Origin: Deltaproteobacteria bacterium
Lineage (GTDB): Bacteria > Myxococcota_A > Polyangia > JAAYKL01
Reading direction: 5' to 3'
Assembly (NCBI GenBank): GCA_016937015.1
Contig: JAFGWT010000543.1
Span: forward strand, 30,440 to 94,439
Length of the DNA stretch: 64,000 nt
Below are positions 3,001 to 59,593 of this stretch, piece by piece (the first letter of the stretch is position 1; each line of letters begins with the position of its first letter). The notes beneath the pieces are model-generated. The model was not told where the DNA came from. It was given only the letters and a program-made list of their open reading frames with translations, and did no database searches. The translations under genes and the position numbers were made by a program.

Positions 3001-3361
3001 TAAAAATGTGCAAAGGCAGTGCCAGCGATTCAGCGTAATCCGTGAAAAAATTAGTGTTTTTTAATTCAATAGGTTTGGGGATCGTGTTTAATTATTTTCC
3101 CATCATTGCACGTAAAAGGTGAACAAATTGACCCGGAATGGGGTGTAAACTTACCTTTGTACGGTTGATTTGGTTCGGGCGACAGTGACACAGGGAAATT
3201 GGACGCTGAGAATTGCAAATCCATGACAAAATCTCTCATGTTCCTGGCATGAGTGGGATGGATTTTGATTGAATCATTACAAACGGCGCCAATTTCAAAA
3301 AGACAGGTTACAAAACGCTGATGATATGTGTATTTCCATTAAGTCTAACAAGAGGTAAATC

Positions 3362-7625: not shown

Positions 7626-8489
7626 ATGCTGAACAGAACGATACTTTTTGTAATAATACTGGTGATTTGCGGCTGTGTGAGTACTACCTATGCGCCGCCT
7701 GAGGACGATGTGAAGGATTCGGGGTCTCCCAATGATTCAGATTCGGGGCCAACCGGCGACAGCGACACCGATACCGACACGGACGCTGATACGGACACCG
7801 ATACGGATACTGATACAGACACCGATACCGATACAGACACCGATACCGATACAGACACCGATACCGATACAGACACCGATACGGACACCGATACGGATAC
7901 TGATACAGACACCGATACAGATACAGACACAGATACAGATACAGACACAGATACAGACACAGATACAGACACCGATACGGATACTGACACAGATACCGAC
8001 ACAGACACAGATACTGACATTGATACCACCACTGATTCTGAATCAGGTAGCGACACGATGGATACCGCAGATTCCGAAACGACAGATTCTGGATTGAACT
8101 GCACCGGCGGCACAACGGAATGCAACGGCGACTGCGTTGACTTGACATCAGATCCCAATAACTGCGTGACCTGTGGGAATGTCTGTTCAGACCCCACGCC
8201 ATACTGTGGTGCAACCGGGTGTGAGGCCGGGATTTTGCTGGCATACGGTGTCGGGGTTGAATTAGAGCCTGGCACTTATGCGATAACCACCGGAGCGACA
8301 GATAATCCATCCGGAACTGGTACCCTTGCGTTGCAGTCTGCAGGGGGCACAACCATTGATGCCAGCGTCACCTTTGACGGTACAACCGCCGAGGGCAATG
8401 ATTACTATGTCTCCTTTCCGAATATACCGGAGGAAACGACCGGTTCGCTAACCATCTCTGCATCGGTAACTATTACTTTTGAGTGGTAG
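7626..8489 (+). CDS. secreted lipoprotein: ~90-residue (Asp-Thr)n linker + Cys-rich module + beta-rich C-terminal domain
   Basis: lipoprotein signal (VICGC); DTDTDT... run encoded by GATACNGACACN repeats (7755-8030); C-x-G-x-C-V-D-L-x-S-D-P-N-N-C-x-x-C-G-x-x-C module. Confidence 0.6.
   Translation: MLNRTILFVIILVICGCVSTTYAPPEDDVKDSGSPNDSDSGPTGDSDTDTDTDADTDTDTDTDTDTDTDTDTDTDTDTDTDTDTDTDTDTDTDTDTDTDTDTDTDTDTDTDTDTDTDTDTDTDTDTDTDTDIDTTTDSESGSDTMDTADSETTDSGLNCTGGTTECNGDCVDLTSDPNNCVTCGNVCSDPTPYCGATGCEAGILLAYGVGVELEPGTYAITTGATDNPSGTGTLALQSAGGTTIDASVTFDGTTAEGNDYYVSFPNIPEETTGSLTISASVTITFEW
7755..8030 (+). repeat. GATACN/GACACN hexanucleotide-type coding repeat ((Asp-Thr)n linker)
   Basis: directly visible ~45 dipeptide-coding repeats inside CDS 7626..8489. 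Confidence 0.9.
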
Positions 8490-8585: not shown

Positions 8586-9878
8586 CTAACGTTTCAGGTT
8601 CACGATCTCCTGGTAAAGCTGATCCGCTGTGGTAATGGTTCGGCTGTTGGCCTGGAAACCGCGCTGATATGCAATCAGATCCACAAATTCCGCTGCAAGA
8701 TCCACGTTGGATTGCTCCAATGCGTTTGATGTGATGGACCCGGCAGAACCTTCGCCCGCGCCGCCCACGCGTGCTGCACCGGACCCCTGCGTTTCAGCCC
8801 AGAGATTGCCACCGGCGCGCGCCAGTTCACCCTCGGCGTTGAAAGTCGCCATTGCCACCTGACCCACCAGACGCTGTTCACCGTTGGAGTAAATGGCCAT
8901 CACATGGCCGTTGCCTTCAACTCCCACGCCGTTCAATTCCCCGGTGCCGTAGCCGTCCTGCTCCTGGCTGCGTATGATGCTCGATGCAGCATACTGGGTC
9001 ACGCCATCGAGGCCTGTACCGCCTTCGGCAATGCTTTCGCCAAAATCAACTTGAATATCCTGCGAAGATGCGCCAGCGAAGGTGACCGTAAAAGGTGCGC
9101 TGGTATCATCAGCGAGGAATCCATCTGTGGTGAACGTCATCGTTCCGTTGCCAACCTGAGCATATGCGCCTGGTGTGCCGCCTAAATCGCCGTCATCCAC
9201 CAGACCGTACCATGACCATGCATTGGCACCGGTTTTGGCAAAATAAACGTCCATACGGTGAGATTCGCCAAGCGAATCATATACGGTGATCGCCGTTGAA
9301 AAATTGGATGCAATACCGGGGTCAAAGTTGGGATCCGCCAGATTCCACGGCGCTGTCGGCACATCTGCACCGGAATCCAGGTTTGCGGAAATATCAATGT
9401 TTTCCGATGCCTGAGGTGGCAAAATGGTGTTGGCAATGCGCAGGTCGGTCAGTTGATTGCTGATGTTGCCATTTGCGGTCGCCAGGTACCCCTGCAGGGT
9501 TAATCCCGCAGGATTCACCAGGGCTCCGGAGTTATCAAGCGTAAACTGGCCGGCACGAGTGTAAAAGTCGTTGGTCCACCCTCCGTTATTGCCGTTTACA
9601 ATGAAGAAACCGTTTCCGTTGATGGCGAGATCCGTTGGTGACTCCGTTGTAATAAATGTCCCCTGCGAAAAAACTCGCGTTATCCCCTGAATGGTCGAAC
9701 CCGATCCTGGCGCATCCGTCGCCAGAATGGAATGTCCGAGCACGTCAGCGAATACCACGGATTCCGCCTTGTACCCTGTGGTGTTGACATTGGCGATGTT
9801 GTCACCCACCACGCCAAGCGCTTTGCCATGGGACGCCAGTCCGGCCACGCCTGTGTATAGGGTTTTGATGATACTCAT
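8586..9878 (-). CDS. flgE: flagellar hook protein FlgE
   Basis: N-terminal SxxxGLxxxxxxLxVxGNNIANxNTxGYK and C-terminal VDLAxEFVxLIxxQRGFQANSRxITTADQ signatures. Confidence 0.9.
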   Translation of the reverse strand: MSIIKTLYTGVAGLASHGKALGVVGDNIANVNTTGYKAESVVFADVLGHSILATDAPGSGSTIQGITRVFSQGTFITTESPTDLAINGNGFFIVNGNNGGWTNDFYTRAGQFTLDNSGALVNPAGLTLQGYLATANGNISNQLTDLRIANTILPPQASENIDISANLDSGADVPTAPWNLADPNFDPGIASNFSTAITVYDSLGESHRMDVYFAKTGANAWSWYGLVDDGDLGGTPGAYAQVGNGTMTFTTDGFLADDTSAPFTVTFAGASSQDIQVDFGESIAEGGTGLDGVTQYAASSIIRSQEQDGYGTGELNGVGVEGNGHVMAIYSNGEQRLVGQVAMATFNAEGELARAGGNLWAETQGSGAARVGGAGEGSAGSITSNALEQSNVDLAAEFVDLIAYQRGFQANSRTITTADQLYQEIVNLKR

Positions 9879-9932
9879 TCGAACTCTCCTTAGGCTGTTG
9901 GCACATCAGTGTGCCGCATTCCTAACACCTCA

Positions 9933-10610
9933 TCAGTTAGTCGTGCTGGGGTAAACTCCCACTATATTTGCTACAGTCGCCTGTAGATCACCCAGTTCCA
10001 GTATTGCGGATCCGCTGTTATAATTAACGCCGTCCACTTTAGCTCTAACGCGTGCTTCATATTGTATGGGGGTACCATCGCTGTCAGCCGCATGGACTGC
10101 CATTGTGTACACCCCCGCGGGTACCAGCTCCCCGTTGTTGTCCATAGTGTTCCATTCCACGTCCACCGATCCCATATTCTTCGAACCAAGATTCATGCTG
10201 CGAACCACGTCTCCAGCGCTGTTTGAAAAATCCACTATCACATTGTCCGCATTCTTGGTGAGTATGAATCCAGTATGGACCGGATCTCCTGTGCCATTAA
10301 CCATCATGTTTTTGCTGATAACTTCCACTTCCTTGCCGATATAGGATGCAGCGGAACTCTCGTATGCAGCCGTCTGAATGGTGCCCAGATTCGAGATCCC
10401 TTCGTTGACTGACACGAGCTGTTCCACGTTGGAGAAAGTGGCCAGCTGGGCGACAAACTCGTGATTCTTCATCGGCTCAAGCGGATCCTGATGCTGCATC
10501 TGAGAGATGAGCAATTTCAGAAAATCCTCCTTGCCCATAAATGAATTGTCAGAAGACTGACTTTTCAAAATCTGGGTTGTGGCACTTTCTGCGATGGTTC
10601 CAATAGTCAT
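9933..10610 (-). CDS. flgD: flagellar hook assembly/capping protein FlgD
   Basis: KEDFLKLLISQMQHQDPLEPMKNHEFVAQLATFSNVEQL matches FlgD N-terminal signature; position between fliK and flgE. Confidence 0.85.
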   Translation of the reverse strand: MTIGTIAESATTQILKSQSSDNSFMGKEDFLKLLISQMQHQDPLEPMKNHEFVAQLATFSNVEQLVSVNEGISNLGTIQTAAYESSAASYIGKEVEVISKNMMVNGTGDPVHTGFILTKNADNVIVDFSNSAGDVVRSMNLGSKNMGSVDVEWNTMDNNGELVPAGVYTMAVHAADSDGTPIQYEARVRAKVDGVNYNSGSAILELGDLQATVANIVGVYPSTTN

Positions 10611-10689
10611 TGTCTATTTCCTCATCGGTGCAAAATGCGTTGTCGCAAATTGCGGTGCATGCCGGATATGATCCATGGCATGACGAGTC

Positions 10690-11547
10690 TCATCGGAGAC
10701 CGGCGTGCGTTGACACTGTGGTCCCGTTGTTATGCTGTCCCTCAACTGAGCCAGCGCGCCTGTACCCTCGGGAAATCTCGAACTGTTCAAGGGAAAGGTC
10801 GATCCCTGAAAGCTGCCGTTTGAGCTCGCCGATTGCAAATGAGAGCGCAGCGGCCGCGCGACGGTCCGTAATGTGCGCGGTAATGAAGACCTTTTTTCCC
10901 TTAAGCGTAACATCCAGTTTTACTTCTCCCAGTTCCTTTAAATCCAGCGTCAAAAAAACGCTGTTTCTTTTGCTCAAGCTGGTACTACGCAAGACGCGTA
11001 CCAACTTTTTGAGTTCTGCCTCTGAAACCAGCGATACCAGTGCAGTCTTGCCTTGAGAAGGCGGGCGAGCAGGCATTGAAGCAAATGCAGATGCTGGAAT
11101 TTCCTTGTTAATTTGCGAATTTGCAACTTCAGATGCTTCAGATTGATGCCCCTTGTGAGCGCCGCGATGACGCGCATTCATCGAGTGATTGCTGTACTGC
11201 TGTTCAGGATTTTGACTACCGGTGCTTTTTACAGTGACAGTGGTATGACGTTTTTCTGACAGATCCCCAGAACTATTGACGCTTTCCGGGATAATCGCTG
11301 GCAGGCAGTGATGTACTGGCCTGTCGTGTCTTTTCTGTTCCTCTTTGTCAGGATTTCCACCTGGGTTCGCTGCGGCAGCGTATAGAGATGCGCCAATTGA
11401 ACCAGCATCGGTGCCTGCTTTTTGACGGGTTTCTTCCATTAATCGGGCAAATGGTGTCAACGCGGGATCCTGTATCACCACTGAATTCGTTGACATGTGC
11501 ATCGGAGGTGCAGGAGTATGGGGCATGGGCAAATCAATCTGCATCAT
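10690..11547 (-). CDS. fliK: flagellar hook-length control protein FliK
   Basis: Pro/Ala/Gln-rich N-terminal half, C-terminal L-x-L-x-L-x-E-L-G-x-V-x-L FliK_C-like segment; position fliJ-flbB-fliK-flgD; ATGA overlap with upstream gene. Confidence 0.7.
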   Translation of the reverse strand: MMQIDLPMPHTPAPPMHMSTNSVVIQDPALTPFARLMEETRQKAGTDAGSIGASLYAAAANPGGNPDKEEQKRHDRPVHHCLPAIIPESVNSSGDLSEKRHTTVTVKSTGSQNPEQQYSNHSMNARHRGAHKGHQSEASEVANSQINKEIPASAFASMPARPPSQGKTALVSLVSEAELKKLVRVLRSTSLSKRNSVFLTLDLKELGEVKLDVTLKGKKVFITAHITDRRAAAALSFAIGELKRQLSGIDLSLEQFEISRGYRRAGSVEGQHNNGTTVSTHAGLR

Positions 11548-12374
11548 TTCTGCTCTCCATCCGTGTCGGTCTTTCCATCGGGCGCTTCTGGCAATGCCAC
11601 GTCTTCCAGCTCCGGAACGGTTGGTACCCTGGGGCCCATCAGGCCGCGCGCGAGCTCCGCGGCCTTTACAGGTGCCATATTGCTTAAAATCTCCGCGGTC
11701 TTGGTGCTGCTCAGTCCGCTCAACACTTCAATTGCGTCTTCAGTGGGCATTGACGTAATCATTTGTGCGCAGGATTGAGGATTCATCCCTTCGATGGTTT
11801 TGAGCAGCTGTTCAACCCGTTGCTGCCTCTCTTTTCGCAACCGTTGAATCTCTGGCTGTAGGCTTTCTTTGTTTTCAGATTCTGTGTAATTAAGATATTT
11901 TACAATGAATTCTTTATGTTTTTCTTTGATTTTTTCCCAGTGCTTCAGGAGCTTTTCATGCTCTTTTTTATACTGTTCAGCAATCTGTGCACCGGCATTG
12001 TTAAGGGTGTCCTGGGTATCGCTTCTGAGTTTTTCAAGGGCCGATTTCTGAAACAGTGCCTCGGATTCAAGCCGGGTAACCATCTGTTCCCGCTGGATTA
12101 TGTCCCGTTCCTTCTGTTCCAGGCTGACGCGTTTTGCTTCGAGCAGCTGCGCAATTTCCACCAGTTCGTTCCCGGTTACCTGGATCGGCGGAATTGCGGA
12201 TAAATCGATCACCTTGTCTTTCGTCGCCGCGCCATTTTCAGTTTCCGCCGCCGTATCTTCGGTGTCCGCAGTATTTGAATCCCTTGCTGTATCTTTGGAT
12301 TTGTCGGACTTTTCAAAATATCCGCAGCCTGCAATAAAAACCAGCCAACCATATATAAATATACGCGTTATCAC
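11544..12374 (-). CDS. flbB: flagellar operon MgtE_N-domain protein (FlbB / YlxF-like)
   Basis: N-terminal TM/lipobox, coiled coil, C-terminal MgtE_N-like segment (AQMITSMPTEDAIEVLSGLSSTKTAEILSNMAPVKAAEL); occupies the ylxF slot of Bacillus/spirochaete fla operons. Confidence 0.6.
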   Translation of the reverse strand: MITRIFIYGWLVFIAGCGYFEKSDKSKDTARDSNTADTEDTAAETENGAATKDKVIDLSAIPPIQVTGNELVEIAQLLEAKRVSLEQKERDIIQREQMVTRLESEALFQKSALEKLRSDTQDTLNNAGAQIAEQYKKEHEKLLKHWEKIKEKHKEFIVKYLNYTESENKESLQPEIQRLRKERQQRVEQLLKTIEGMNPQSCAQMITSMPTEDAIEVLSGLSSTKTAEILSNMAPVKAAELARGLMGPRVPTVPELEDVALPEAPDGKTDTDGEQK

Positions 12375-12814
12375 CGATGTGCCTCCCGTGTGGCGGTCAG
12401 ATCATCAATCTCAGACTGCTGTTTGAGACTCTGGTCCCTCTCCAATGCCTCTTTCCGATGTGTGTGCAGCGTTTCCATCTGTTTTACTCTTTTATGCGAT
12501 GCAAGCAGCTTTGCACGCCTGGCCTCGGTGTCGTGCTTTTTCTGTGCCAACTGATTCTCACTTTTTCGCAGGTCCGACTGCGCCCATTTGGCACTCTGTT
12601 CGGCAAGGGCGAGGTCTTCCGGCGTAATGCTCTTTCCCGTGATGTCACGAATCGCATTCAATTCGCCATCAAGCGCCTGCATGGCCATGTCGCGTTCGGA
12701 TTCGGCATGGGCTTCGTTTCGTCGTGCTTCGTCCATTTCTTTGGCGTCGATATCCCGCTGGCGTTCCCGGAACGCGATGAGCCTTTTGATTTTTCTAATG
12801 TTTTCGGCTGTCAT
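12371..12814 (-). CDS. fliJ: flagellar export chaperone FliJ
   Basis: 147-aa charged coiled-coil protein immediately downstream of fliI, 4-nt overlaps on both sides. Confidence 0.7.
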   Translation of the reverse strand: MTAENIRKIKRLIAFRERQRDIDAKEMDEARRNEAHAESERDMAMQALDGELNAIRDITGKSITPEDLALAEQSAKWAQSDLRKSENQLAQKKHDTEARRAKLLASHKRVKQMETLHTHRKEALERDQSLKQQSEIDDLTATREAHR

Positions 12815-14163
12815 GAGTTGCGCCTTTTGTTCTTCCGACTCCCCGCTTCAACCTGCCTTATCAGCGTCGCCAATTGCTGCGTGGATTCGTCGTAGCCGGA
12901 ACGGGTTGTCTGAGGCTGGGATACGTAGTTCATGAACAGGGGCATGAACTGTATGGCCTTGTCAACCGTGGCATCACTGCCCTGCTGGTATGCGCCAATT
13001 TTGATCAAATCTTCGGCCTGATAGTAGTCTGACAGCATGGCGCTGGCCTCTCTGGCAGCGGCCATATTTTCAGGGGAGGATAACTGGGTTATCAGTCGCG
13101 ATTTGCTGGAAAGTACATCCACCGCCGGATAAATACCCCGGTTTGCATAGTCCCTTGACAAAATGATGTGTCCATCCAGCAGGGCTCGCGTGCTGTCTGC
13201 CACTGGGTCCACCATATCGTCGCCTTCCACCAAAACCGTGTAAATGCCTGTAATGCTGCCATTTTTGCTGTTGCCAGCGCGCTCCAGAAGCCTGGCGAGC
13301 TCGACAAATACAGAAGGCGGATATCCTTTGGTAGCCGGTAATTCACCACCTGCGAGTCCCACTTCCCGCAACGCCATCGCATATCGGGTCAGTGAATCGA
13401 GCAGCAGTACCACCCGTCGTCCCTTATCCCGAAAATATTCGGCAATCGATGTAGCGTAGAGAGCGCCACGAACACGGGTTAGGGGGGCCTGATCCCCTGT
13501 TACCGCCACCACGCAGGTGCGGCTTCGGTTTTCGGCAGTGACGGCATCCTCTACGAACTCGCGGACTTCACGGCCGCGTTCTCCCACCAGTCCAATCACG
13601 CAAACATCGAATTCGCCATGCATGCTCAGCATTGAAAGCAGAGTGGTTTTGCCAACACCCGCACCCGCGTAAATCCCCACACGTTGCCCCTGGCCCAGCG
13701 TCAGCATCGAATCGAGAACCCGGACGCCTGTTTCGAGAATCCTGTCGATGCGGGTTCGGCTCATTGGACTTGGAGGCGTGCCTCGGAGGGATTGTCGGGC
13801 GTTCAGCGTCAATGGCTTGTCATCGAGGGCACGGCCATGGGCGTCCACAATCCGTCCCAGCAGTTCATCGCCCACCGGAACCAGAGTATCCGTATTGCGC
13901 AATGTGGCGGTGCATCCGGTGAAAATGCCTTCGAGCGAATCAAATGCCATGCATAGGACATGATCTTCATCAATTCCTATCGCTTCTGCTGCCAGCGGTC
14001 TGGACGCACCCGGTGGCCACAAATCCACCTGCTGGCCCACAGATGCCCGTAATCCGCGCACTTTCAGCACCGGACCCACAATGGAAATCACCTGTCCCTC
14101 CATCTTCAGCCGGGACAGTTCCTTCATATGCGCAATGAACTGCTGCTCCTGTGCGGCCAGCAT
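12811..14163 (-). CDS. fliI: flagellum-specific ATPase FliI
   Basis: Walker A GIYAGAGVGKTTLL, Walker B VVLLLDSLTRYA, F1-beta-like fold; flanked by fliH and fliJ. Confidence 0.95.
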   Translation of the reverse strand: MLAAQEQQFIAHMKELSRLKMEGQVISIVGPVLKVRGLRASVGQQVDLWPPGASRPLAAEAIGIDEDHVLCMAFDSLEGIFTGCTATLRNTDTLVPVGDELLGRIVDAHGRALDDKPLTLNARQSLRGTPPSPMSRTRIDRILETGVRVLDSMLTLGQGQRVGIYAGAGVGKTTLLSMLSMHGEFDVCVIGLVGERGREVREFVEDAVTAENRSRTCVVAVTGDQAPLTRVRGALYATSIAEYFRDKGRRVVLLLDSLTRYAMALREVGLAGGELPATKGYPPSVFVELARLLERAGNSKNGSITGIYTVLVEGDDMVDPVADSTRALLDGHIILSRDYANRGIYPAVDVLSSKSRLITQLSSPENMAAAREASAMLSDYYQAEDLIKIGAYQQGSDATVDKAIQFMPLFMNYVSQPQTTRSGYDESTQQLATLIRQVEAGSRKNKRRNS

Positions 14164-14828
14164 CAGATGTCTCCTCCCTGCTCAAGTGAAAACAAAGTTT
14201 TCAGCTTCGCCAGCCGCTGGAATACCTCTGCGTTAACCGTTTTCCTGCCTGCATTCACCACACACCCCATCGCGGACACCGACGGGTCCACCTTAACGGT
14301 CACATTCTCCATCTCCTCCAGGAGATTCAGTAATTCGTGCTCTTCAAATGCGGCGTGGATGTCCGGATGCAGTCGCACCACTGGGCGATCCGATTCATCA
14401 AACATTCCTAGAGATTCTTTAACAATTTCAATTGTTTTCTCCGGTTTTGCCTCAAGAGTGCCACAGGTCAGCTGTTCAGCGATGGCGAAGGCCAGTCTGA
14501 CACAGAATGAGAGATCCCGTTCTGTCATTTCCTTCCTGACCCGTGCCAGCTCGCTGATGGATGTGGCCAACAACTTCAGATTGTTTTCAACCCTCGGGTC
14601 CGGCTCGGGTTCGGGTGGCGGCGGCGGCGGTGGTTCCGGCTCGGGCGGTGGCGGTGGTTCCGATTTTGGCCTGCTGTGCATCTGCGGCCCCGGTTGCGGC
14701 GTTGCGAATGGTTGTCCAATAACAATATTTGAAATCGGCTCTTCTGCCGCAGCTTTCGCGGACGCACCAGACCAGTCCGGCGTTCCCACATCAAATCCAC
14801 CTTTGTTCTCCGGATCGAACCAGATCAT
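14163..14828 (-). CDS. fliH: flagellar assembly protein FliH
   Basis: position between fliG and fliI; coiled-coil then FliH_C-like segment; contains an EPEPPPPPPPEPEP low-complexity insert. Confidence 0.7.
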   Translation of the reverse strand: MIWFDPENKGGFDVGTPDWSGASAKAAAEEPISNIVIGQPFATPQPGPQMHSRPKSEPPPPPEPEPPPPPPPEPEPDPRVENNLKLLATSISELARVRKEMTERDLSFCVRLAFAIAEQLTCGTLEAKPEKTIEIVKESLGMFDESDRPVVRLHPDIHAAFEEHELLNLLEEMENVTVKVDPSVSAMGCVVNAGRKTVNAEVFQRLAKLKTLFSLEQGGDI

Positions 14829-15868
14829 ACAATTTCCTCTCCGCCACGTCCCGCGACCACGATGGCACCTTCTGATTCAAGCCGCAATGCCGTATCCACA
14901 ATCTCCTGCTGTGCCTTTTCCACCTCGGACAACTTGACCGGACCCATGGCCGCAAGGTCGTCCAAAAGTATCTCCGCGGCACGACTCGACACCGACGACA
15001 ATATTTTGTCCCGCAGGGTATCGCTTGCGGTCTTGAGTGCGAGTACCAGCTGATCGTTGCTGATTTCCTTGATGACCGCCTGCATGCCGCGGCCCTGAAC
15101 ACTTATAAGATCTTCGAATCCAAACATCGCTCGTCGCAGGCGCAGCACCATCCCCGGATCCTCATCCCCAATATTGGTGAGCAGATCCTCGGTTTCATCA
15201 ATGGATAGATTGGAAAGGATGCCAGCCACCCGTGCAATCCCATCCACCTGGATACTGTCTCCGGAATCCACTTCGGACAGCTGGTCTTCAACCGCCGTAA
15301 ACAGGGCGGTAACCGTCGAATTGGGAATCGATTCCAGGGTCGCCATTTTGGCCAGGATTTTGGCCTGGATTTCCCCATCCATCAGGCTCAGCACTTTGGC
15401 GGCGTACCCCGGGGATAGCTCCGCCAGAATGGCAGCAACCACCTGCGGGTTTTCAGGCTCAAGCACAGCAACCACTTCTTCAGGCGTTCTTTTTTCGATG
15501 GATGCATATGGTTTGTCGTGGTCGGTTTCCTTGAAAAGGGAGCGACTTCGGTCACTTCCAAGGGAACGCTGTGCCAGCCTTTCAATGTATGCAGTTCCGG
15601 CGCCTGCCGGTAGAACTGGGGTTCGCGCGTCGTTTAGAAAATCGCGATATGTTCTGGCAAGGGAGGTTGAATCGGTTTGATATTCCTTACCTGCCAGCGC
15701 GTGCAGCATTCGAATATCCTCGGGACTCATGTGGCGAAGCACTTTTGATACAGTGTCTTCTTCTAGAGACATTATCAGCAGCACGGCCTGCGTGGGCTTT
15801 GTCAATTCCACGTACTTTTTCTGCTCCGCGGGTGGATTGGCGGGCTGCTTAGCGATTTGCGTTGCCAT
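14825..15868 (-). CDS. fliG: flagellar motor switch protein FliG
   Basis: 347 aa; armadillo-like repeats, conserved charged C-terminal torque helix region (..ILLDDLAAMGPVKLSEVEKAQQEIV..). Confidence 0.9.
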   Translation of the reverse strand: MATQIAKQPANPPAEQKKYVELTKPTQAVLLIMSLEEDTVSKVLRHMSPEDIRMLHALAGKEYQTDSTSLARTYRDFLNDARTPVLPAGAGTAYIERLAQRSLGSDRSRSLFKETDHDKPYASIEKRTPEEVVAVLEPENPQVVAAILAELSPGYAAKVLSLMDGEIQAKILAKMATLESIPNSTVTALFTAVEDQLSEVDSGDSIQVDGIARVAGILSNLSIDETEDLLTNIGDEDPGMVLRLRRAMFGFEDLISVQGRGMQAVIKEISNDQLVLALKTASDTLRDKILSSVSSRAAEILLDDLAAMGPVKLSEVEKAQQEIVDTALRLESEGAIVVAGRGGEEIV

Positions 15869-17601
15869 CAGCTGTTCTCCCTCGCTGCCACGGGTTTTTC
15901 ATGAATCCATTTTTTAATGATGCGGGCAGCAGTTTCGCTGTCTTCTTCAAACACGTTTTTCACCTGCGCCATCATTTCGGTTGTGCGATTGGCGTATTCC
16001 TCGAATCCAGGCGGAGCGTTAAAAATTGACATGTCCGGAAGAGATGCCACAGATTGGGGGGACATCCCGTCGGTCTGGCCTGGCAACTGTCTGTTTTGTT
16101 CCTCGATCATTGATTCCAGCTCATGTACCGGTCTGGGGAAGGGAAGGGTGCCAGTACCGGGCTGCGCACCCAGAAAATGTGTTCCCATGGACGCCGTCGC
16201 GGGTTGGTGGCGTTTTCTGAATGTGGCCAGCGCCAAAAATGCAAACAGCACCACCAGAACGCCAACTGCGATGGGCAGGTACTGTTTCCACGGGAACGGC
16301 GCCTTAATCGCCTCGTCGTCCAGCGGTTCGGGCTGATGGAAGGAAATGGACTGAACAGAGATCTGATCCCCCCGATTCTTGCTGTACCCTATCGCGCCCT
16401 GAACGGCGGTTTCAATTTTTTTCAGCTCCTCTTTTGAGCGGGGGACAAACTTTTCGCCCTCTTTATTAACTCCATCAACCAGCACCGAAATGGTGATTCT
16501 TTCCAGTTCACTTCCGGTGCCAATCGTTTTTTTGACGATTTTATCGATTTCCCAGTTTTTGGTTTCCAGTTCCTTGCGCGTGTTGCTCTGCGCGTTATTG
16601 GATCCTGGCTGTTCCCCCCCCGGCAGATTGGACCGCGAACCGGGAATCCCCTCGCCACCACCGCTTTGCGTCCCAGCCACTTCCAGTTCCCTGCGCTCAC
16701 TGCGGACAGCTGTTTTGGCAGGGTCGTAATGTTCCTCCTGAACTTCGTTTTTACTGAAGTCAAATTCGGCCGCCACTCGGGTAATTGATTTGCCAGGCCC
16801 CACGAGCTGGTCGAGCATCTCCTGAACGCTCTGCTGGATGTTTTGCTCATAGCGGGTTTTAAACTCCATGCCCTCGCCACCGTTGCCCCCCACACCTGAC
16901 CTGGCGGACAAGAGCTTTCCGTGGGTGTCGACAATCGTTACCTGATCGGGGGAGAGTCCTTCCACACTCGATGATACAAGGTGAACAATGGCACTTACGG
17001 TCTCTTTGGGGAGTTCCCGTCCCCGGTGAAGCTCAAGAATCACGGAAGCCTGCGCAGGTGTTGACTCCTTGCCGAGCAGCGTGCGCTTGGGCAGAACCAG
17101 GTTGGCCTTTGCGTTTTTCACAACATTGATGCGGGCGATGGTACGTGACAATTCGCCTTCCAGTGCCCGTCTCATGGCAACGCGTTCTTCGAATTCGGTC
17201 ATCCCGAACTGTTGGTGATCAAACAGTTCGAAACCGACGCCGCCGCCGGTGGGCAGTCCTTCAGTGGCCAGTTCAAGACGCAGTTCGTGAAGACTTTCGT
17301 CGGGAACCAGAATTCGTGTGCCAGCCTCTTCAAGCCGGTAAGGAATTTTTTTGCCTTTCACAAATTCAATGATCGCCGAAGCGTCTTCGGGGGTCAGATT
17401 ATTGTAAAGCGTGCGATAACTGTTGTTTTCGACAGTCATCAGCATCGCGGTGGCGCCAAGAGTAAGAATCCCGATGATAATTACCGACGCTTTCAGCATC
17501 CTGGGCTGTTGTTGCCAGAATCCTTTGACCTGCAGCAGCTTTTCCCTGGCCACATCCTGGGGCTGCTTTTTAACGCCGTTAGTCTGATTATTGTTGTCCA
17601 T
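15868..17601 (-). CDS. fliF: flagellar M-ring protein FliF
   Basis: 577 aa, two TM segments flanking a large periplasmic domain, C-terminal FliG-binding tail; canonical fliE-fliF-fliG order. Confidence 0.9.
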   Translation of the reverse strand: MDNNNQTNGVKKQPQDVAREKLLQVKGFWQQQPRMLKASVIIIGILTLGATAMLMTVENNSYRTLYNNLTPEDASAIIEFVKGKKIPYRLEEAGTRILVPDESLHELRLELATEGLPTGGGVGFELFDHQQFGMTEFEERVAMRRALEGELSRTIARINVVKNAKANLVLPKRTLLGKESTPAQASVILELHRGRELPKETVSAIVHLVSSSVEGLSPDQVTIVDTHGKLLSARSGVGGNGGEGMEFKTRYEQNIQQSVQEMLDQLVGPGKSITRVAAEFDFSKNEVQEEHYDPAKTAVRSERRELEVAGTQSGGGEGIPGSRSNLPGGEQPGSNNAQSNTRKELETKNWEIDKIVKKTIGTGSELERITISVLVDGVNKEGEKFVPRSKEELKKIETAVQGAIGYSKNRGDQISVQSISFHQPEPLDDEAIKAPFPWKQYLPIAVGVLVVLFAFLALATFRKRHQPATASMGTHFLGAQPGTGTLPFPRPVHELESMIEEQNRQLPGQTDGMSPQSVASLPDMSIFNAPPGFEEYANRTTEMMAQVKNVFEEDSETAARIIKKWIHEKPVAARENS

Positions 17602-17617
17602 TTATTATCCTTCGGAA

Positions 17618-17905
17618 TTACATTCTCATGTTCATAACTTCCTGGTACGCCATCAGCATTCGATTTCGTACCGCGCCAACCAGCTTGAATGTGATGGTGG
17701 CCCTCTCCGCTGCTATCATGGTGTCATGAATATTATTGTGTTTACCCGCTGCAAAATCCGCCCCTATCTGCTCCGATTCCTTCATGATATTGTTCGCCTT
17801 CGACAGAAAATCACTGAAGTGGTCGCCCAGATCAGGCTTCTTAATATTGTTCTCGGTTAAAAGAACACCCTGCAGCGACGATGTTTCAATGGGGCCGACA
17901 GGCAT
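17618..17905 (-). CDS. fliE: flagellar hook-basal body protein FliE
   Basis: 95 aa, FSDFLKxAxxxxxExxxxxDxxxxxxAxGKxNNIHDTMIA...FKLxxxVRNRxxxAYQEVMNMRM signature. Confidence 0.85.
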   Translation of the reverse strand: MPVGPIETSSLQGVLLTENNIKKPDLGDHFSDFLSKANNIMKESEQIGADFAAGKHNNIHDTMIAAERATITFKLVGAVRNRMLMAYQEVMNMRM

Positions 17906-18348
17906 TAGATGTTACCTCCGATACCAAGTGCGGAACGTCCCACCCGGCCTACGGCTTTCATTGCTGTCGCGCCCGCATCATAGGCACGGGACGCCATAAT
18001 CATGTTCACCATTTCCTCGGTGACATTCACATTTGGATAAGCCACAAAACCAGCCTGATCAGCGTCAGGATGGGAGGGATCATACACCATCTGAGCGGGA
18101 TTCTGATCTGTGACAATCTCCTTCACCCGCACGCCATGCGCCTGTTGCGACAGTCGGTCACCGAGCAGCTCTTCGAACTTGTTCTGCACCGGGTCCGATT
18201 GAAAAACCGGATCCTTGCGACGATAGGGACCGCCTTCTTCAGTTCTTGTGGTCTGAGCATTGGCGAGATTGGACGCAACGATGTTTAGCCTGGTGCGCTG
18301 CGCCGTTAAAGACGACGAAATGATTTCCATTGCGCTGAAAACGTTCAT
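17905..18348 (-). CDS. flgC: flagellar basal-body rod protein FlgC
   Basis: MNVFSAMEIISSSLTAQRTRLNIVASNLANAQTT N-terminus and C-terminal rod motif (EMVNMIMASRAYDAGATAMKA). Confidence 0.9.
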   Translation of the reverse strand: MNVFSAMEIISSSLTAQRTRLNIVASNLANAQTTRTEEGGPYRRKDPVFQSDPVQNKFEELLGDRLSQQAHGVRVKEIVTDQNPAQMVYDPSHPDADQAGFVAYPNVNVTEEMVNMIMASRAYDAGATAMKAVGRVGRSALGIGGNI

Positions 18349-18359
18349 GCTACGCTCCT

Positions 18360-18752
18360 TTATCTACCATCCGCAGCCGCATACTTCAGGATGCCCAGCT
18401 GGTGGCTGACCACTTTGCTCACAGTTTCATATCTCAGGGTATTGGCGTTCAACTGAGCCATTTCCTTGTCGAGACTCACATAGTTCAAGTCATTTCCGGG
18501 AACGTGATCCCGAACTTCGTAAACCTCGTATTCGCTGGCCAGTCCCAGTCCGTTGGTTTTGTAGTGCGTGTCATGGGTGCGCTGCAGCGCCATTGCGAAT
18601 TCACTACCCCCTTCAAAATCGCTTCGTTTTATTTCTTTAGGGGTAAATCCCGGGGTATCCACGTTGGCGATATTCCCCGAAATGAGATTTTGCCGCGCCA
18701 TATGAAAATTCAGGGCGCTCGCAACGCCGTTCACATTGTCAAACATGCTCAT
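18360..18752 (-). CDS. flgB: flagellar basal-body rod protein FlgB
   Basis: SGNIANVDTPGF rod motif, 130 aa, precedes flgC. Confidence 0.9.
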   Translation of the reverse strand: MSMFDNVNGVASALNFHMARQNLISGNIANVDTPGFTPKEIKRSDFEGGSEFAMALQRTHDTHYKTNGLGLASEYEVYEVRDHVPGNDLNYVSLDKEMAQLNANTLRYETVSKVVSHQLGILKYAAADGR

Positions 18753-20332
18753 GGGGTTGCCCCTTTCTTTTTCAGGTTTTCCAGCTGTCCCTGCATCTCC
18801 TGTGTCTGCTTTTTTATCGTTGCCAGAGTGGCCCAGCTGCTGTTGCGATCCTGCAGGATTTTAAGGATACTTTGATACAATCCGTTGTTCTTCTTTTGTT
18901 CCGCATCCAGAAGTCCGTAATACAGCGCATGATCGGGCAACGTACTCAACGCCTTTACCGACAGGCGCTTGCCTTCCTTAAGTGCGATTTCAGTACGCAG
19001 TCTTGTTGCGAATTTGTTCTGAATCCCGTCGATTCGATTTTTGTTCGCGTCCGGGATGATCAGTTCTGTGGAGGTGGCTCGTTCTGCCCGCACCGTCGCT
19101 TCAACGTGTGCCAGATTATCGTGGGATGATAGCGAAATCAGGGTTTCAGCCTCGGTAAAATCATCGACAGCCGCAATCCAATCTCCCTCCTGCAGCCCAA
19201 CATACGCACGCACCCTGAGCAGACGTCCACGCGCCCAACCAGGCAGGGCTTTTTCTTCAAGAAAGTACGATGCGGCGTCTCGTGCTTTTACGTACTGTCC
19301 AGCGTCAAGATATGTTTCGGCCAGTACTGGTGCTGCCCGCAACAAATCCTTGTTGTCCAGTCGTCCCATGATTCTGTCTGAATACGCGGCCAATACAGAA
19401 CCCAATCCAATCCGAATCAGATGGTCCGCCGCGATTTCAAGCAGATTGAGCGAAAAAAATCGCGTTAAGTAGTCTTTTTCAAATTTAATAAACGTGTCTG
19501 TAAGCCTGGAGGTGTCATCCAAACGTGCGTATTTCAGCAGTGTATTGATTAGGATTGTTTTTCGATGTGTTTCTATTCGCTGCAGAATCTTTTCAGATTC
19601 TTTCTCTCTGTTAGGGGTTTCTCGGAGATAGTCACCCAAAGTGCTTAAAATGTATTCCGCTTCATCCACATCACCAATGGAAAATTGACACCAGGAGATC
19701 AGAAATGCTGATTCGATGGCTTCGGGTGTATCAAATCTGCTGGAGAGCGGATTGCACTTTGCTGCGACACTTTCAGTGAGTGCTGCCTCCACCACATTGA
19801 TGCGGTTTTCGGTCAACAGTTTCTTTTCCGGTGCTGCGGATTCTTCGAGAAAAAGCGCCTTGCGCGCACCGACAACATCGCCCTTTTTTAACAGTTCTAT
19901 TGTATGAACAGGCAGTGGAACAAGCGAATCCGGATCGAGCAAAGCGTTCAGTGCATCCTTTTCCGAACGTGAATTGCCAACGATAATTTGGACCTTTTTA
20001 TGCTGTTTCTTTCCATTGAATTTTAAAGACGCATTCTTGGAGTACAGCTCAACGGTCATTTTGGACTGACGGTTTGGGAACAGCCGATACTCAATATCAG
20101 TATTTTCAAGCGAATCACGAATTTCCTGCTCCTGCACAGGTGACCATTCCCTGAAATACATACGCACGCCACGCTCATCTTCGTCCTCTTCCAGATGAAC
20201 AATTTTTTCGTCAAAGGCCAGAACAGAAAGCTCTTTGAGTGACCACATGTCGTCATCAGCGGCGGCAATGCCTGGCAAAACGATGGCGACTGAAAAGAGT
20301 AACGTGATGTGAATTTTATTCGGACATTTCAT
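18749..20332 (-). CDS. secreted TPR-like/helical-repeat protein, first gene of the flagellar operon
   Basis: clear signal peptide (KIHITLLFSVAIVLPGIAAA); 4-nt overlap with flgB start implies co-transcription; no recognisable catalytic motif. Confidence 0.5.
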   Translation of the reverse strand: MKCPNKIHITLLFSVAIVLPGIAAADDDMWSLKELSVLAFDEKIVHLEEDEDERGVRMYFREWSPVQEQEIRDSLENTDIEYRLFPNRQSKMTVELYSKNASLKFNGKKQHKKVQIIVGNSRSEKDALNALLDPDSLVPLPVHTIELLKKGDVVGARKALFLEESAAPEKKLLTENRINVVEAALTESVAAKCNPLSSRFDTPEAIESAFLISWCQFSIGDVDEAEYILSTLGDYLRETPNREKESEKILQRIETHRKTILINTLLKYARLDDTSRLTDTFIKFEKDYLTRFFSLNLLEIAADHLIRIGLGSVLAAYSDRIMGRLDNKDLLRAAPVLAETYLDAGQYVKARDAASYFLEEKALPGWARGRLLRVRAYVGLQEGDWIAAVDDFTEAETLISLSSHDNLAHVEATVRAERATSTELIIPDANKNRIDGIQNKFATRLRTEIALKEGKRLSVKALSTLPDHALYYGLLDAEQKKNNGLYQSILKILQDRNSSWATLATIKKQTQEMQGQLENLKKKGATP

Positions 20333-20345
20333 ACCCGAAACGGGG

Positions 20346-20362
20346 TTGCAATCCGTATGCCA
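20346..20362 (-). promoter_or_regulatory. sigma-54-like -24/-12 element (TGGCAT-N5-TTGCA)
   Basis: reverse complement of 20346..20362 reads TGGCATACGGATTGCAA with consensus GG/GC spacing; caveat: only ~12 nt from the ATG at 20332. Confidence 0.25.
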
Positions 20363-20466
20363 CGGTTATCCAAATGAATTTATTCAGTTTTTTGACGCTT
20401 CTGTCAGAAATTTGAGCGGTGCAGGGTCAGAATGATGACTGTTGCGTTCGTCATTTGACGCTTCAT

Positions 20467-20562
20467 TCAATGGACGATGCAGGCAATGGACGATGCAGGC
20501 AATGGACGATGCAGGCAATGGACGATGCAGGCAATGAACGATGCAGGCAATGGACGATGCAG
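20467..20562. repeat. 6 x 16-bp perfect tandem direct repeat (CAATGGACGATGCAGG; copy 5 has one G>A)
   Basis: read directly from sequence; lies in the 270-bp leader between the xylanase 3' end and the flagellar operon start. Confidence 0.95.
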
Positions 20563-20603
20563 GTTTGCGATAAATCGACGGGGAAAGGAATGGGGAAGTG
20601 GAA

Positions 20604-21779
20604 TCAGTCGAACCTAACGGTTACTTCAGCGTGACCGGAGCTATGATATCCCTCTACAACCAACGATACCTCGTAGAAAGATCCCATTTGCAGGCCATAC
20701 TGTCCCCATGCCTGAAAGTGGGGGGCGACAGTAATCGTGCCGCTGGTACGCTTGTCGGTGCGCACGCTCCAGAACTGTGGGAAAGTGGCGGTTCCTTCGA
20801 TGGACGGCTGGTTGATTCGGTCGCTTTTGTATACCTCATAAGTGCCACCATCCACCTGAATCGTACCCAGGGGGCTTGTCCCTGGTGGACGCCAGCTGCC
20901 CCAGCTATCCACGATGTAGTATTCAACCAACGGATTTTGCGTCCAGCCGTAAATCGCCAGATAGGAATTGCCGTTGGGCTGGTAATTCGCACTGTAGGTC
21001 ACCACAGGCTCGGCGGATCCGGGTCTGACGCCTTTTCGGGCCAGATAATTCCCCTGTGCCTCGGTCCAGTCTGCGACAAAGCCGACCGCGGTATTGGTCA
21101 TACAGGCGGAACCACTGTCCGTCCAGATTTCGTAGGTGAGTCCGCAATGCTTACCTGACTGTGCGCTCGCGCAAGCCTGCATATCCCCTTCGGTACATGC
21201 GGGGGGATCGGCGTCTGTATCCGTGTCCGTATCGGTATCAGTGTCCGTATCAGTGTCCGTATCAGTGTCTGTGTCCGTATCGGTATCGGTATCCGTATCA
21301 GTGTCCGTATCAGTGTCGGTGTCAGAATCCGTAGCGCCGGGTTCGCAACAGATTGGTGTCTCTGATGGACATGTGTAGTCGGGGAGATAAGTGCCATTCA
21401 TGTTTCGACATTCTCCCTGTCCAACACAAGTTCCCGGACAATTCGTATCGCCATCTGAATCAGTGTCCGTATCTGTATCGCTGTCCGAATCCGAGTCTGA
21501 ATCGGTATCTGTATCCGTGTCCGAGTCGGTGTCTGAATCTGAATCAGTGTCTGAATCTGAATCAGTATCCGAATCAGTGTCTGAATCAGTGTCTGAATCC
21601 GAATCAGAATCGCTGTCAGTGTCTGTGTCACTGTCGGTATCTGCATCTGAATCCGAATCGCTATCTGAGTCGGAATCTGAATCGCTGCTGCCTTCTCTTA
21701 AATTGTCTTCTCCGCCAGTACACGCCGCGAAGAGAGAGACGGCAGACAGTAAGATTAAAACCAGTGCATGCTTCGTCAT
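20604..21779 (-). CDS. GH11 endo-1,4-beta-xylanase with lipoprotein signal, two (Asp-Ser/Asp-Thr)n linkers and an 8-Cys mini-module
   Basis: C-terminal 190 aa align by eye to GH11 signatures ([22 protein letters not shown] ... [12 protein letters not shown] ... [21 protein letters not shown]; both catalytic Glu present); start set at Met with lipobox LFAAC. Confidence 0.9.
21201..21332 (-). repeat. (Asp-Thr)n coding repeat, xylanase linker 2
   Basis: GTATCNGTGTCN repeats visible on + strand. Confidence 0.9.
21444..21686 (-). repeat. (Asp-Ser/Asp-Thr)n coding repeat, xylanase linker 1
   Basis: ~80-residue SD/TD run encoded by GA(R)TC/GTGTC-type repeats. Confidence 0.9.
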
Positions 21780-27286: not shown

Positions 27287-28177
27287 ATGAAGATGGTTAC
27301 TTTTACTCGGTCTGCCTTATTATTGTTTTTACTGTTTTTGTTGCTTGCAATGATATCGTGTTCGGAAAAGAGCGCGGATGAGCCACTGAATGACACCAAC
27401 CTCTCGGAGAATCAAGATACTACCACTGATTTTTCTGGCGACACGGATACTGATACCGACACCGATACTGATACAGATACCGACACCGATACTGATACCG
27501 ACACAGATACTGACACAGATACTGATACAGATACTGATACAGATACTGATACCGACACTGATACCGACACTGATACTGATACAGATACCGACACAGATAC
27601 TGTTACCAACACAGATGTCGACATGCATTCCGATTCAGATACGGCTACTGGTTCTGAAGATGATACAGACACTGGTTCCGGTTTAAATACTGATTCTGAT
27701 TTTGATGCTGACAGTGTTACTGACACAGATACGCATGCTGATTCCGACACGAGTGCCGACGCGAATACTGATACCGCAACAGATTCCGGCACCGATGCCG
27801 CCCCGGTGGCTGCTATTCTGGACGATTTACATCCGGGGTGGTACGCAAATGACTGGCACTACAAATCCAACTGCGCCTATAGTAACTGCCACAATGGTCT
27901 TGGTCCGGATCTGCCCACCGATCATGGAAGCTACGACGAACCATATTGCGCGGATTGCCATGGGGGAAATGGCGCATGGAAGCCAAATACTGCACACAAC
28001 CACCACCCGTCCCCCATGCCGACGAATTGTACTGGTTGCCATACCAACGGGCAACATGGCTTTACTCAGGACGCGGATTGCATTGCCTGCCATCTTGCGA
28101 ATGTTGGTACGGTGGATGGCTTCAGCACGCTTGGATGCGAAGCCGTGATATGCCATGCGGTTACCCCCACGCCGTAA
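27287..28177 (+). CDS. lipoprotein with (Asp-Thr)n linker and C-terminal c3-like multihaem cytochrome module
   Basis: GGAGG RBS; signal+lipobox (LAMISC); 3 canonical CxxCH (CADCH, CTGCH, CIACH) plus 2 CxxxxCH (CAYSNCH, CEAVICH) within ~100 aa with many extra His. Confidence 0.6.
   Translation: MKMVTFTRSALLLFLLFLLLAMISCSEKSADEPLNDTNLSENQDTTTDFSGDTDTDTDTDTDTDTDTDTDTDTDTDTDTDTDTDTDTDTDTDTDTDTDTDTDTDTVTNTDVDMHSDSDTATGSEDDTDTGSGLNTDSDFDADSVTDTDTHADSDTSADANTDTATDSGTDAAPVAAILDDLHPGWYANDWHYKSNCAYSNCHNGLGPDLPTDHGSYDEPYCADCHGGNGAWKPNTAHNHHPSPMPTNCTGCHTNGQHGFTQDADCIACHLANVGTVDGFSTLGCEAVICHAVTPTP
27441..27620 (+). repeat. (Asp-Thr)n coding repeat
   Basis: GATACNGACACN-type repeats, ~58 residues of pure DT. 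Confidence 0.9.
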
Positions 28178-34145: not shown

Positions 34146-34473
34146 TGGCGGTGTGATACACAGCGCAGTACTTGGGTAACCGCCAGCTGAAGCGTGGGAA
34201 TGTCACGCAAATAGCTATAATCAAAGTTGATAAATTTCCACATGCTTGATTTGCGCAACGAAAAAAAACGAAACATTTTTGTGCAACTGATTAATGGGGA
34301 AATACAATTGTGTGCCGTGAAAAAATCTGTTATTGACTGCCACTCCCTCAGATAATGCCGTAATTCAGTAACTTTTTTGTAGGTTGTACATTCTGGTACA
34401 TATATTGCTTGCGCCTCGACGTCGTTTAACATGCGACATAATCGAGATTTCAGCTACGCAAGGAGACAACTCA

Positions 34474-43036: not shown

Positions 43037-43237
43037 TCCTCTTTCCCGTTGCTAAGTGGTTGTTGATAGAGCTATTGAGCAAAGACAATGCCAGGATTGT
43101 CCCAATTGGCGGATTTTGGAAAAAATTAATTAATTCGTAGGTTTAAGAGGATGGCTGTGTTGGATTGAACATCAGTGATGCCGAGATTGCAGGAGGAATT
43201 GTCTTTTTTTAAGCGATTTTATATGCAATTAGTAGAT

Positions 43238-52648: not shown

Positions 52649-53569
52649 ATGAAAAAACAAAACCTATTATTAATCTTAGCGATGGCGCTGCTTACCGGTT
52701 TTGCATTTATTGGATGCGGAACCGATGATGAGGGCCCGGGCCTGAACAAGTCTGCCACAGGCGACTCTGACAGTGACACTGACAGCGACAGCGACTCTGA
52801 CAGTGATTCAGACAGCGACAGCGACTCAGATAGCGACAGCGACTCAGACAGCGACAGCGATACTGACAGCGATAGCGATAGCGATGGCGGTGGTACCGAA
52901 TGTGACGGCAACGACAAAGATTGCTACAGCGAATGCTGGGGTTGTGCATTGTCTTCAGCTGCACTTTGTAAACCAACGCTTGAAGATTGCCTGATGGACA
53001 CAAAATGTGCTGCGTATTACGATTGCAAAGACAAAACCTGCTGTGGCGGTAACGACAACTGCCTCACTGGCGACGAGTGGGAAGACTGCATGAAAGGTTG
53101 TGCTGAAACCGCAGAAGCAACCGATGCAACTCTCGAAATGTATAAAGACATCGATTATTGTGTTGCCTGTGAAGCATGTGAAATCTCATGCGCACAGGGC
53201 GAGTCCGCTGACTTCGCCATGTGTGGTAATCCTGAAGATATGAACAACCCCGACAATCCCTGCTACGAAGCCGATGCTGAACCCGGTCAGACTGCCTGTT
53301 TCTCATGGGCCGGTTGGGGTGGACCCTGTACGACCGCCGTTACAAACTGCAAAAACGACGACAAATGTGAGACTCTGGAGACATGTGTAAACGAAACCTG
53401 GGCGTATGACGATTGGTCCGCCCGTCAGGACGTTTGTTTCGCAGATGCTGGATCAGCTGCCGAAACACTGTATTGGGCTTACATGCAATGCATCTACTGT
53501 GACGCATGTGATGTCGCCTGTCTTAAAGATGCTGGCTCCAAAAACTGCGACGAATACAGCGGTAAATAG
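52649..53569 (+). CDS. Cys-rich secreted lipoprotein, paralogue A ((Asp-Ser)n linker + ~250-aa novel Cys-rich domain)
   Basis: TGAGGG RBS; lipobox FIGC; shares with paralogue B the motifs CDGxDxDCYxxCWGCALSS, CVACxxCxISC, ACFSWAGWGGPC, DDWSARQD, YMQCIYCxAC. Confidence 0.6.
   Translation: MKKQNLLLILAMALLTGFAFIGCGTDDEGPGLNKSATGDSDSDTDSDSDSDSDSDSDSDSDSDSDSDSDSDTDSDSDSDGGGTECDGNDKDCYSECWGCALSSAALCKPTLEDCLMDTKCAAYYDCKDKTCCGGNDNCLTGDEWEDCMKGCAETAEATDATLEMYKDIDYCVACEACEISCAQGESADFAMCGNPEDMNNPDNPCYEADAEPGQTACFSWAGWGGPCTTAVTNCKNDDKCETLETCVNETWAYDDWSARQDVCFADAGSAAETLYWAYMQCIYCDACDVACLKDAGSKNCDEYSGK
52763..52885 (+). repeat. (Asp-Ser)n coding repeat (GACAGY/GAYTCN)
   Basis: visible hexanucleotide repeats within paralogue A. 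Confidence 0.9.
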
Positions 53570-57750: not shown

Positions 57751-58243
57751 TTTTTTCCGTTGCACTGACGACGTTCATTCTCGGATTAGACCGATAGGGG
57801 AACCAGTTGCCAGTGCACCCTTTTTCGGTTCACCGACTGGAATCGCACAACTGTCTCACCGGTAATATGTATGTTGTGGCGACTGTTGGCGAATCAAAAT
57901 CAAATGATATCCAATAGCCCGCAAAAGAAGACAATGTCTCAACAGCCATGCTGGAAATTAGAATTGCCAAGCCGGTGCTGGCCCTTTGCGTGGCGAACCA
58001 CGGTGTCGGATGCGGAATAAGTTGAGGCAACAGTTATTGACGGTCGCTGGCAGATGGTACTGGATTGCACAGGGAGCGAGAAGTCTGGAGCCCGTCAGGG
58101 AGAGCCCGTCAGGGAGAGCCCGGCAGGGATTTTGTGTAACCTGTCCTGACATCGTTAAACAGGTACCCGGTTTTCCCAGTGGGCACTTTTCTGTTTGCGG
58201 TAAAGAAGATTCTGACGGGCTCCTTGGGCTCGGCTCAAGAGCG

Positions 58244-59593
<1,350 letters not shown>

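Follow-up and report, generated by a model that had tools for sequence, protein, structure and literature searches.

The 64-kb stretch of DNA analysed here (the window) contains a flagellar operon preceded by a 16-bp sequence that is repeated head to tail, with a sequence resembling a sigma-54 promoter between the repeats and the first gene. The locus raises the question of whether the repeats take part in controlling the operon, as an iterated enhancer or as a tuner of expression through their copy number, or whether control resides in other sequences of the same region.

The array and its genomic setting

The repeats lie in an intergenic region of 271 bp (20333-20603), which runs from the stop codon of a GH11 xylanase gene to the ATG of the first operon gene and which is, as the preliminary description had it, the only sizeable one ahead of the flagellar operon. 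Tandem Repeats Finder and a pattern search placed the array of six 16-bp units at 20468-20563, read on the operon strand (-). Tandem Repeats Finder gave a period of 16, 6.0 copies, 97% matches and a score of 185, and the pattern search recovered 5 exact, head-to-tail copies of the unit CAATGGACGATGCAGG (CCTGCATCGTCCATTG on the operon strand) and 1 copy with a single mismatch (CAATGAACGATGCAGG, 20532-20547). The variant is the fifth copy and carries a G>A change (G20537A on the + strand), which reads C>T on the operon strand, where this copy is the second from the distal end. Both analyses thus bear out the six-unit array with one point difference described initially, and correct its position (20467-20562) upwards by one base. 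Allowing up to 3 mismatches, the unit was matched 10 times in the window against 0.84 expected, a number reached by none of 100 shuffles, and the pattern search found no single-copy occurrence of the unit in the other intergenic regions of the window. High-identity head-to-tail copies in non-coding DNA are one mark of a bacterial VNTR or minisatellite. Folding the array as single-stranded DNA gave no structure signal (z = +1.28). A BLAST search with the intergenic region found no match among plasmids and phages, and a 24-nt pattern across the unit junction had 0 matches in the metagenome contig collection and 0 in the viral contig collection. We also considered and rejected a replication origin or iteron at this site: the cumulative GC skew turns near 20 kb, yet it tracks gene orientation across the window, and a single 8/9 match resembling a DnaA box, TTATCCAAA at ~20366-20374, is not conserved in relatives.

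Other repeats were seen in the window. A second array outside coding sequence (58088-58129; 3 x 14 bp, unit GAGCCCGTCAGGGA) is found in an intergenic spacer between convergent genes, not in a promoter, which shows that such arrays arise elsewhere in this genome; an inverted partial copy, TCTGACGGGCTCC (58211-58224), is located ~90 nt downstream of it, so that a long hairpin is possible there. In-frame repeats with periods of 6, 12 or 18 bp were found at 7757-8019, 21213-21684, 27446-27623, 52761-52889, 53894-53976 and 59349-59477, and they encode Asp-Thr, Asp-Ser or Ser-rich linkers of secreted proteins, including the GH11 xylanase. Coding tandem repeats are abundant in this genome.

The operon proposed in the preliminary description is real, and it has 13 ORFs rather than 12 genes. 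The first gene (18749-20332, -, ATG at 20332) encodes a secreted protein of 527 aa and is followed on the same strand (8586-18752, -) by flgB, flgC, fliE, fliF, fliG, fliH, fliI, fliJ, a gene for a 276-aa MgtE_N-like protein, fliK, flgD and flgE. The 527-aa protein (locus tag JXX14_25785) matched no Pfam or NCBIfam family. Its cluster has a single member, and 6 homologues were found among 5.8 billion clustered proteins (the nearest 57% identical), the gene being located directly before flgB in every case. The AlphaFold model (pLDDT 82) has, besides a signal peptide, an N-terminal beta domain (residues 33-120) and an extended TPR-like solenoid, and its structure matches were generic TPR proteins and, weakly, chain 9hmf_K of the C. 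jejuni flagellar periplasmic scaffold. The protein may be a lineage-specific periplasmic component of the flagellum.

For comparison we used six orthologous loci, namely the window and L002, L003, L004, L005 and L006. They were taken from contigs encoding homologues of the first-gene protein and, for L006 ('Polyangia bacterium'), from a genome found by a DNA-pattern scan; L008, which is the L003 contig, and L011, which is identical to L004 over the compared region, were not counted separately. The first-gene proteins of the six loci are only 45-58% identical. Two of the relatives are Zodletone-spring metagenome-assembled genomes, with accessions that refer to a novel order, JAFGXQ01, and a novel genus, JAFGQN01 (Polyangia, Myxococcota), lineages in which genes for flagellum assembly have been reported (bioRxiv 10.1101/2021.07.06.451402). 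The host is an uncultured, flagellated anaerobic myxobacterium, probably of the class Polyangia, order JAFGXQ01.

Synteny is kept among these loci in that the holB-PSP1-HEAT genes diverge from the flagellar operon, with a slot of variable content between them. This slot is empty in L003, L005 and L006. In L004 it contains two small genes and in L002 a D-S-repeat gene, similar in its repeats to those of the window; in the window it is occupied by the GH11 xylanase gene (20604-21779, -), with 40 nt between the stop codon of that gene and the array. Because its contents differ among relatives, the slot appears to be a hotspot of gene gain and loss, and the array sits at its boundary. The xylanase has a lipoprotein-type signal peptide and a D-S/D-T repeat linker, and this genome is the only one to carry it between holB and the flagellar operon; exact-protein look-ups with two alternative starts of the protein found nothing.

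Because the sequence comes from a metagenome-assembled genome, the array or its copy number might have been created by the assembler. In line with this, the Logan unitig L001 breaks inside the array: this k=31 unitig from run SRR13394436 contains the gene and the promoter module and ends 30 nt into the array, as is expected where a k=31 de Bruijn graph meets a repeat. Against an artefact, L001 independently contains the proximal edge and ~1.9 units of the array. Moreover, the longest perfect periodic run in the 96-bp array (~69 bp) is shorter than the k87/k141 of sister assemblies and than typical reads, and the order across the junction (holB, variable slot, flagellar operon) is that of the relatives. 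Since the array can be resolved by large k-mers or single reads and synteny matches the relatives, a gross artefact is very improbable; the exact copy number of 6 rests on a single assembly.

The promoter and the module upstream of it

Between the array and the first gene lies the sigma-54-type -24/-12 element TGGCATACGGATTGCA (20347-20362, -), which has 1 mismatch to TGGCAC-N5-TTGCW: it reads TGGCAT-N5-TTGCA in the window, with exactly 10 nt between the GG and GC doublets. A single match of this kind is not significant by itself, as the window contains 46 sigma-54 matches with at most 2 mismatches where 44 are expected. The orthologous loci validate the call, since CGTGGCAY-N5-TTGCA is present in 6/6, always 14 nt ahead of the conserved ATG. 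The start codon is in turn fixed by the MKC/MNC N-terminus, part of the signal peptide, which is conserved in the protein alignment. Phylogenetic footprinting therefore strongly reinforces the sigma-54 match of the preliminary description. The caveat attached to that match, that the -12 element is very close to the start codon, holds as well: the intervening stretch is 14 nt long (20333-20346, -) and its length is identical in 6/6 genomes, so the short distance is a conserved property and no error in the promoter call. Judged by this conservation, the promoter of the flagellar rod/hook/export operon is a genuine and conserved one, probably dependent on sigma-54.

With transcription starting ~12 nt downstream of the GC doublet, as is usual in sigma-54 geometry, we infer a start site near 20336 and a leader of ~4 nt. 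Such a leader leaves no room for a Shine-Dalgarno sequence and would imply a nearly leaderless mRNA. A ~4-nt leader is unusual for a sigma-54 transcript; that of amtB in the window has 54 nt and contains AAGGAG. The stretch between the -12 element and the ATG (20333-20346, -) also contains a small dyad, ACCC-N6-GGGT, which is kept in 4/6 genomes. Besides the window these are L002, L003 and L006, the latter by a compensatory C:G to T:A double change; the dyad is absent from L004 and L005. It may serve as an operator or belong to a 5' structure.

Sites of the same type precede other genes of the window. The sequence TGGTAC-N5-TTGCT (34394-34409, +) is located 54 nt upstream of the AAGGAG-ATG of amtB-glnK (ATG at 34475), a perfect TGGCAC-N5-TTGCA (3009-3024, -) stands before a cytidylate-kinase-like gene, an unknown gene and a Usp gene, and a one-mismatch site (43078-43093, -) is found 41 nt before an ECF sigma-factor gene. 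The sites at amtB-glnK and at 3009-3024 support the use of sigma-54 in this genome. No rpoN gene and no gene for an enhancer-binding protein is present within the 64-kb window.

Alignment of the six loci further revealed that the ~125 bp between the promoter and the array form a module whose blocks keep both sequence and position, base for base, in 6/6 genomes. Numbered from the inferred start site, this module consists of half-site A, a GTCA at -120 to -123 that is conserved in 6/6 genomes (20456-20459, -), dyad B, GTCATCATTCTGAC, at -90 to -103 (GTCA-N6-TGAC; 20426-20439, -), and dyad C, TGACAGAAGCGTCA, at -57 to -70 (TGAC-N6-GTCA; 20393-20406, -), which has an A-run next to it. Between dyad C and the promoter the alignment contains a conserved A/T-rich spacer (AAAAAACTGAATAAATTCA...; 20365-20392, -), possibly a bend or a weak IHF-like site. 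GTCA is present at 29/30 half-site positions across the loci. When the alignment was folded, the dyad pairs were found never to vary and the covariation term was +0.25. Because the paired positions are invariant and covariation is unsupported, the module is conserved as DNA sites and not as RNA structure. The three GTCA/TGAC elements at about -57 to -123 are likely to be activator binding sites, and it is this module, rather than the array, that we propose as the candidate enhancer. The activator is possibly a FleQ/FlrA-like enhancer-binding protein.

We also scanned contig collections with a pattern of the module. No match was obtained in the metagenome contig collection (0 matches), and in genome contigs the scan yielded the new orthologue L006, found L008 and L011 again, and returned three other contigs, L007, L009 and L010. 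These three were rejected as unrelated or chance matches, about 1 chance match being expected by our own estimate; the sigma-54-like site of L007 has no ORF of at least 40 aa downstream.

The predicted start site bears on a further possibility, namely that the array is transcribed, as part of a structured leader or 3'-UTR RNA or of a small ORF (20419-20634, +, 71 aa). The preliminary description had placed the array in the leader of the operon, ORFs do cross it, and a length of 6 x 16 = 96 bp preserves the reading frame. Set against this, the sigma-54 geometry puts the start site ~130 bp downstream of the array, and the ORFs overlap the conserved promoter sites and have no counterpart in the relatives. 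In addition, folding of the intergenic RNA gave no structure signal (z = +0.52), the Rfam scan of the intergenic region returned no match, and neither a terminator nor a sigma-70 promoter was found in it. A transcribed role for the array is extremely improbable.

Probable origin of the array and its relation to the candidate enhancer

Counted from the predicted start site, the array runs upstream from -132 to -227; its distance to the -24 element, 106-201 bp, agrees with the geometry given in the preliminary description and falls within the range in which enhancers are expected (about 80-250 bp upstream of -24/-12). That description had suggested that this geometry would fit an iterated enhancer, and had proposed comparing the copy number of the array in related genomes. 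This comparison spoke against the enhancer: the homologous region of the five relatives (L002-L006) contains no tandem repeat, so the array is absent from 5/5. Taken in every rotation and on both strands, the unit likewise scored at shuffle level in the upstream regions of 4/5 relatives. In the remaining one, L003, a 13/16 match to the unit, CTGCGTCGCGCATTGC, was found at ~3686 (-) inside the holB coding region, with a score that was reached by 0/200 shuffles. We consider this match probably incidental, five regions, 16 rotations and two strands having been tested.

The array was then compared with the conserved sites themselves. A 12-nt matrix trained on 25 half-sites of the relatives gave the five sites of the window 6.7-12.7 bits, scores that only the top 0.15% of window positions attain. 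In the array the best position scored -1.6 bits, a value reached by 3.75% of random positions. The 16-bp unit contains neither GTCA nor TGAC and has GTCC instead, although its core, CGTCCATTG, is alike to half-site A (CGTCAAATG) at 7/9 positions, which makes weak binding of the activator of the module to the unit core possible. The iterated enhancer of the preliminary description is therefore not borne out. The array is missing from all relatives, lacks the conserved half-sites and scores at background with the matrix, its unit has no dyad symmetry, and the conserved GTCA/TGAC sites between array and promoter fit the role better.

The 16 nt that adjoin the array on its promoter side bear on its origin. 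This sequence, AATGAAGCGTCAAATG (20452-20467, -), is in register with the array, is identical to the unit at 10/16 positions and contains half-site A, and it can be regarded as a degenerate seventh copy. Only 0.22% of the 16-mers of the window match the unit as well, and in-register 16-mers on the other side of the array match it at 4-7 positions. When Tandem Repeats Finder was run on the independent unitig L001, it counted this promoter-side flank as part of the repeat. Because half-site A lies within these adjoining in-register 16 nt, the array probably grew from the distal edge of the enhancer. We propose that a 16-bp segment containing the distal half-site A was duplicated in this lineage, that the extra copy, being unconstrained, diverged (GTCA>GTCC), and that recent slippage or unequal recombination would have then produced six copies, one of which later gained a point change. 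Such a history would account for the five identical copies, the single-base variant and the degenerate seventh copy. What resulted would be a stretch of ~96 bp that is inert or modulates only weakly, in a place that tolerates extra DNA: the newly inserted xylanase gene ends on one side of it, and the enhancer lies on the other.

The same observations can be read in favour of function. If the flagellar enhancer-binding protein bound the six units as extra weak sites, or if a regulator particular to this lineage bound them, the units would extend the enhancer and raise the local activator concentration or help oligomer assembly upstream of the sigma-54 promoter. The promoter is real, the array lies within enhancer range and abuts the conserved sites, the unit core resembles half-site A, and the adjoining 16 nt match the unit at 10/16 positions. 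Besides, the nearest relative is only 57-58% identical in its first gene, and the absence of the array there is thus compatible with a function acquired in this lineage. We nevertheless regard an extension of the enhancer as unlikely: 5/5 relatives lack the array, the unit has GTCC where GTCA stands at 29/30 half-site positions and is indistinguishable from background by the matrix, it has no dyad symmetry and does not occur as a single copy in other intergenic regions of the window, and its 16-bp period would place successive units on opposite faces of the helix.

Flagella are a classic target of phase variation, and the preliminary description had raised the possibility that the array is a contingency locus, in which slippage alters the number of units and so modulates expression of the flagellar operon. 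The near-perfect copies imply a recent expansion and a slippage-prone array, and by analogy with the VNTR of clbR, one of the documented promoter-adjacent VNTRs with copy-number-dependent effects (PMC10924459), a change in unit number might act on the promoter. What weighs against such an element is the location of the array. It overlaps neither the -24/-12 element nor the conserved upstream sites, leader or ORF, whereas phase-variable tracts lie inside the core promoter, leader or ORF. A gain or loss of units would shift no conserved spacing, and upstream of the array there is nothing conserved but the 3' end of the xylanase gene. Tuning of expression by copy number is for these reasons quite unlikely. 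A combination of the two functional readings, in which duplicates of the half-site would serve as weak sites and slippage would tune sigma-54-dependent flagellar expression through a copy-number-variable extension of the enhancer, is equally doubtful.

By the alignment, the array is outside the conserved regulatory logic of the operon. We favour the interpretation, to which we assign a probability of roughly 60%, that it is a minisatellite of recent origin, confined to this lineage, which expanded from the distal edge of the sigma-54 enhancer and has either no effect or a weakly modulating one. Its purity could reflect selection or homogenisation in addition to youth.

Comparison with known systems

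Seen as an ordinary promoter-adjacent minisatellite, the array would be of interest chiefly because it might mark strains or tune expression. More useful is the module, which, together with the sigma-54 promoter and the almost leaderless first gene, provides a testable model of rod/hook/export operon control in flagellated Myxococcota of an anoxic spring. The parts of this model are the promoter, the GTCA/TGAC sites and the first gene, and the module supplies motifs for finding the remaining regulon and the activator.

Tandem direct repeats of about 11-22 bp are also found in plasmid iterons and partition-site arrays, and in this respect the array resembles them; unlike these, it has no rep or par gene nearby and no plasmid or phage similarity. 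Phase variation by simple sequence repeats in promoters, as in Haemophilus and Neisseria, involves units of 1-9 nt, located for instance between the core promoter hexamers. Tracts of this type lie inside the core promoter, the leader or the ORF, and a change in unit number consequently switches expression. The array shares with them that a repeat tract is tied to the promoter of a surface or motility structure, but its units are of 16 nt and it is located outside core promoter, leader and ORF. In the pks islands of E. coli, an 8-bp VNTR upstream of clbR is reported to differ in size between strains, and promoter activity to depend on its copy number (PMC10924459). Like the clbR VNTR, the array is made of near-identical short units arranged head to tail in intergenic regulatory DNA ahead of an operon's first gene; unlike it, the array has a 16-bp unit and lies distal to all conserved promoter elements.

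The promoter and its module can be compared with the sigma-54-dependent class II flagellar promoters activated by FleQ, FlrA and FgrM in Pseudomonas, Vibrio and Geobacter. The locus differs from these systems in its Myxococcota host, in its ~4-nt leader without a Shine-Dalgarno sequence and in its first gene, which encodes a secreted TPR-like protein, and those systems have nothing comparable to the 6 x 16-bp array. As in those systems, a -24/-12 element precedes an operon of the fliE-fliF type, dyads are located upstream, and an A/T-rich stretch separates the sites from the promoter. Dyad B moreover shares its outer half-sites and their spacing with the FleQ box proposed for P. aeruginosa, GTCaNTAAAtTGAC (PMC6120874), a resemblance from which we claim no membership.
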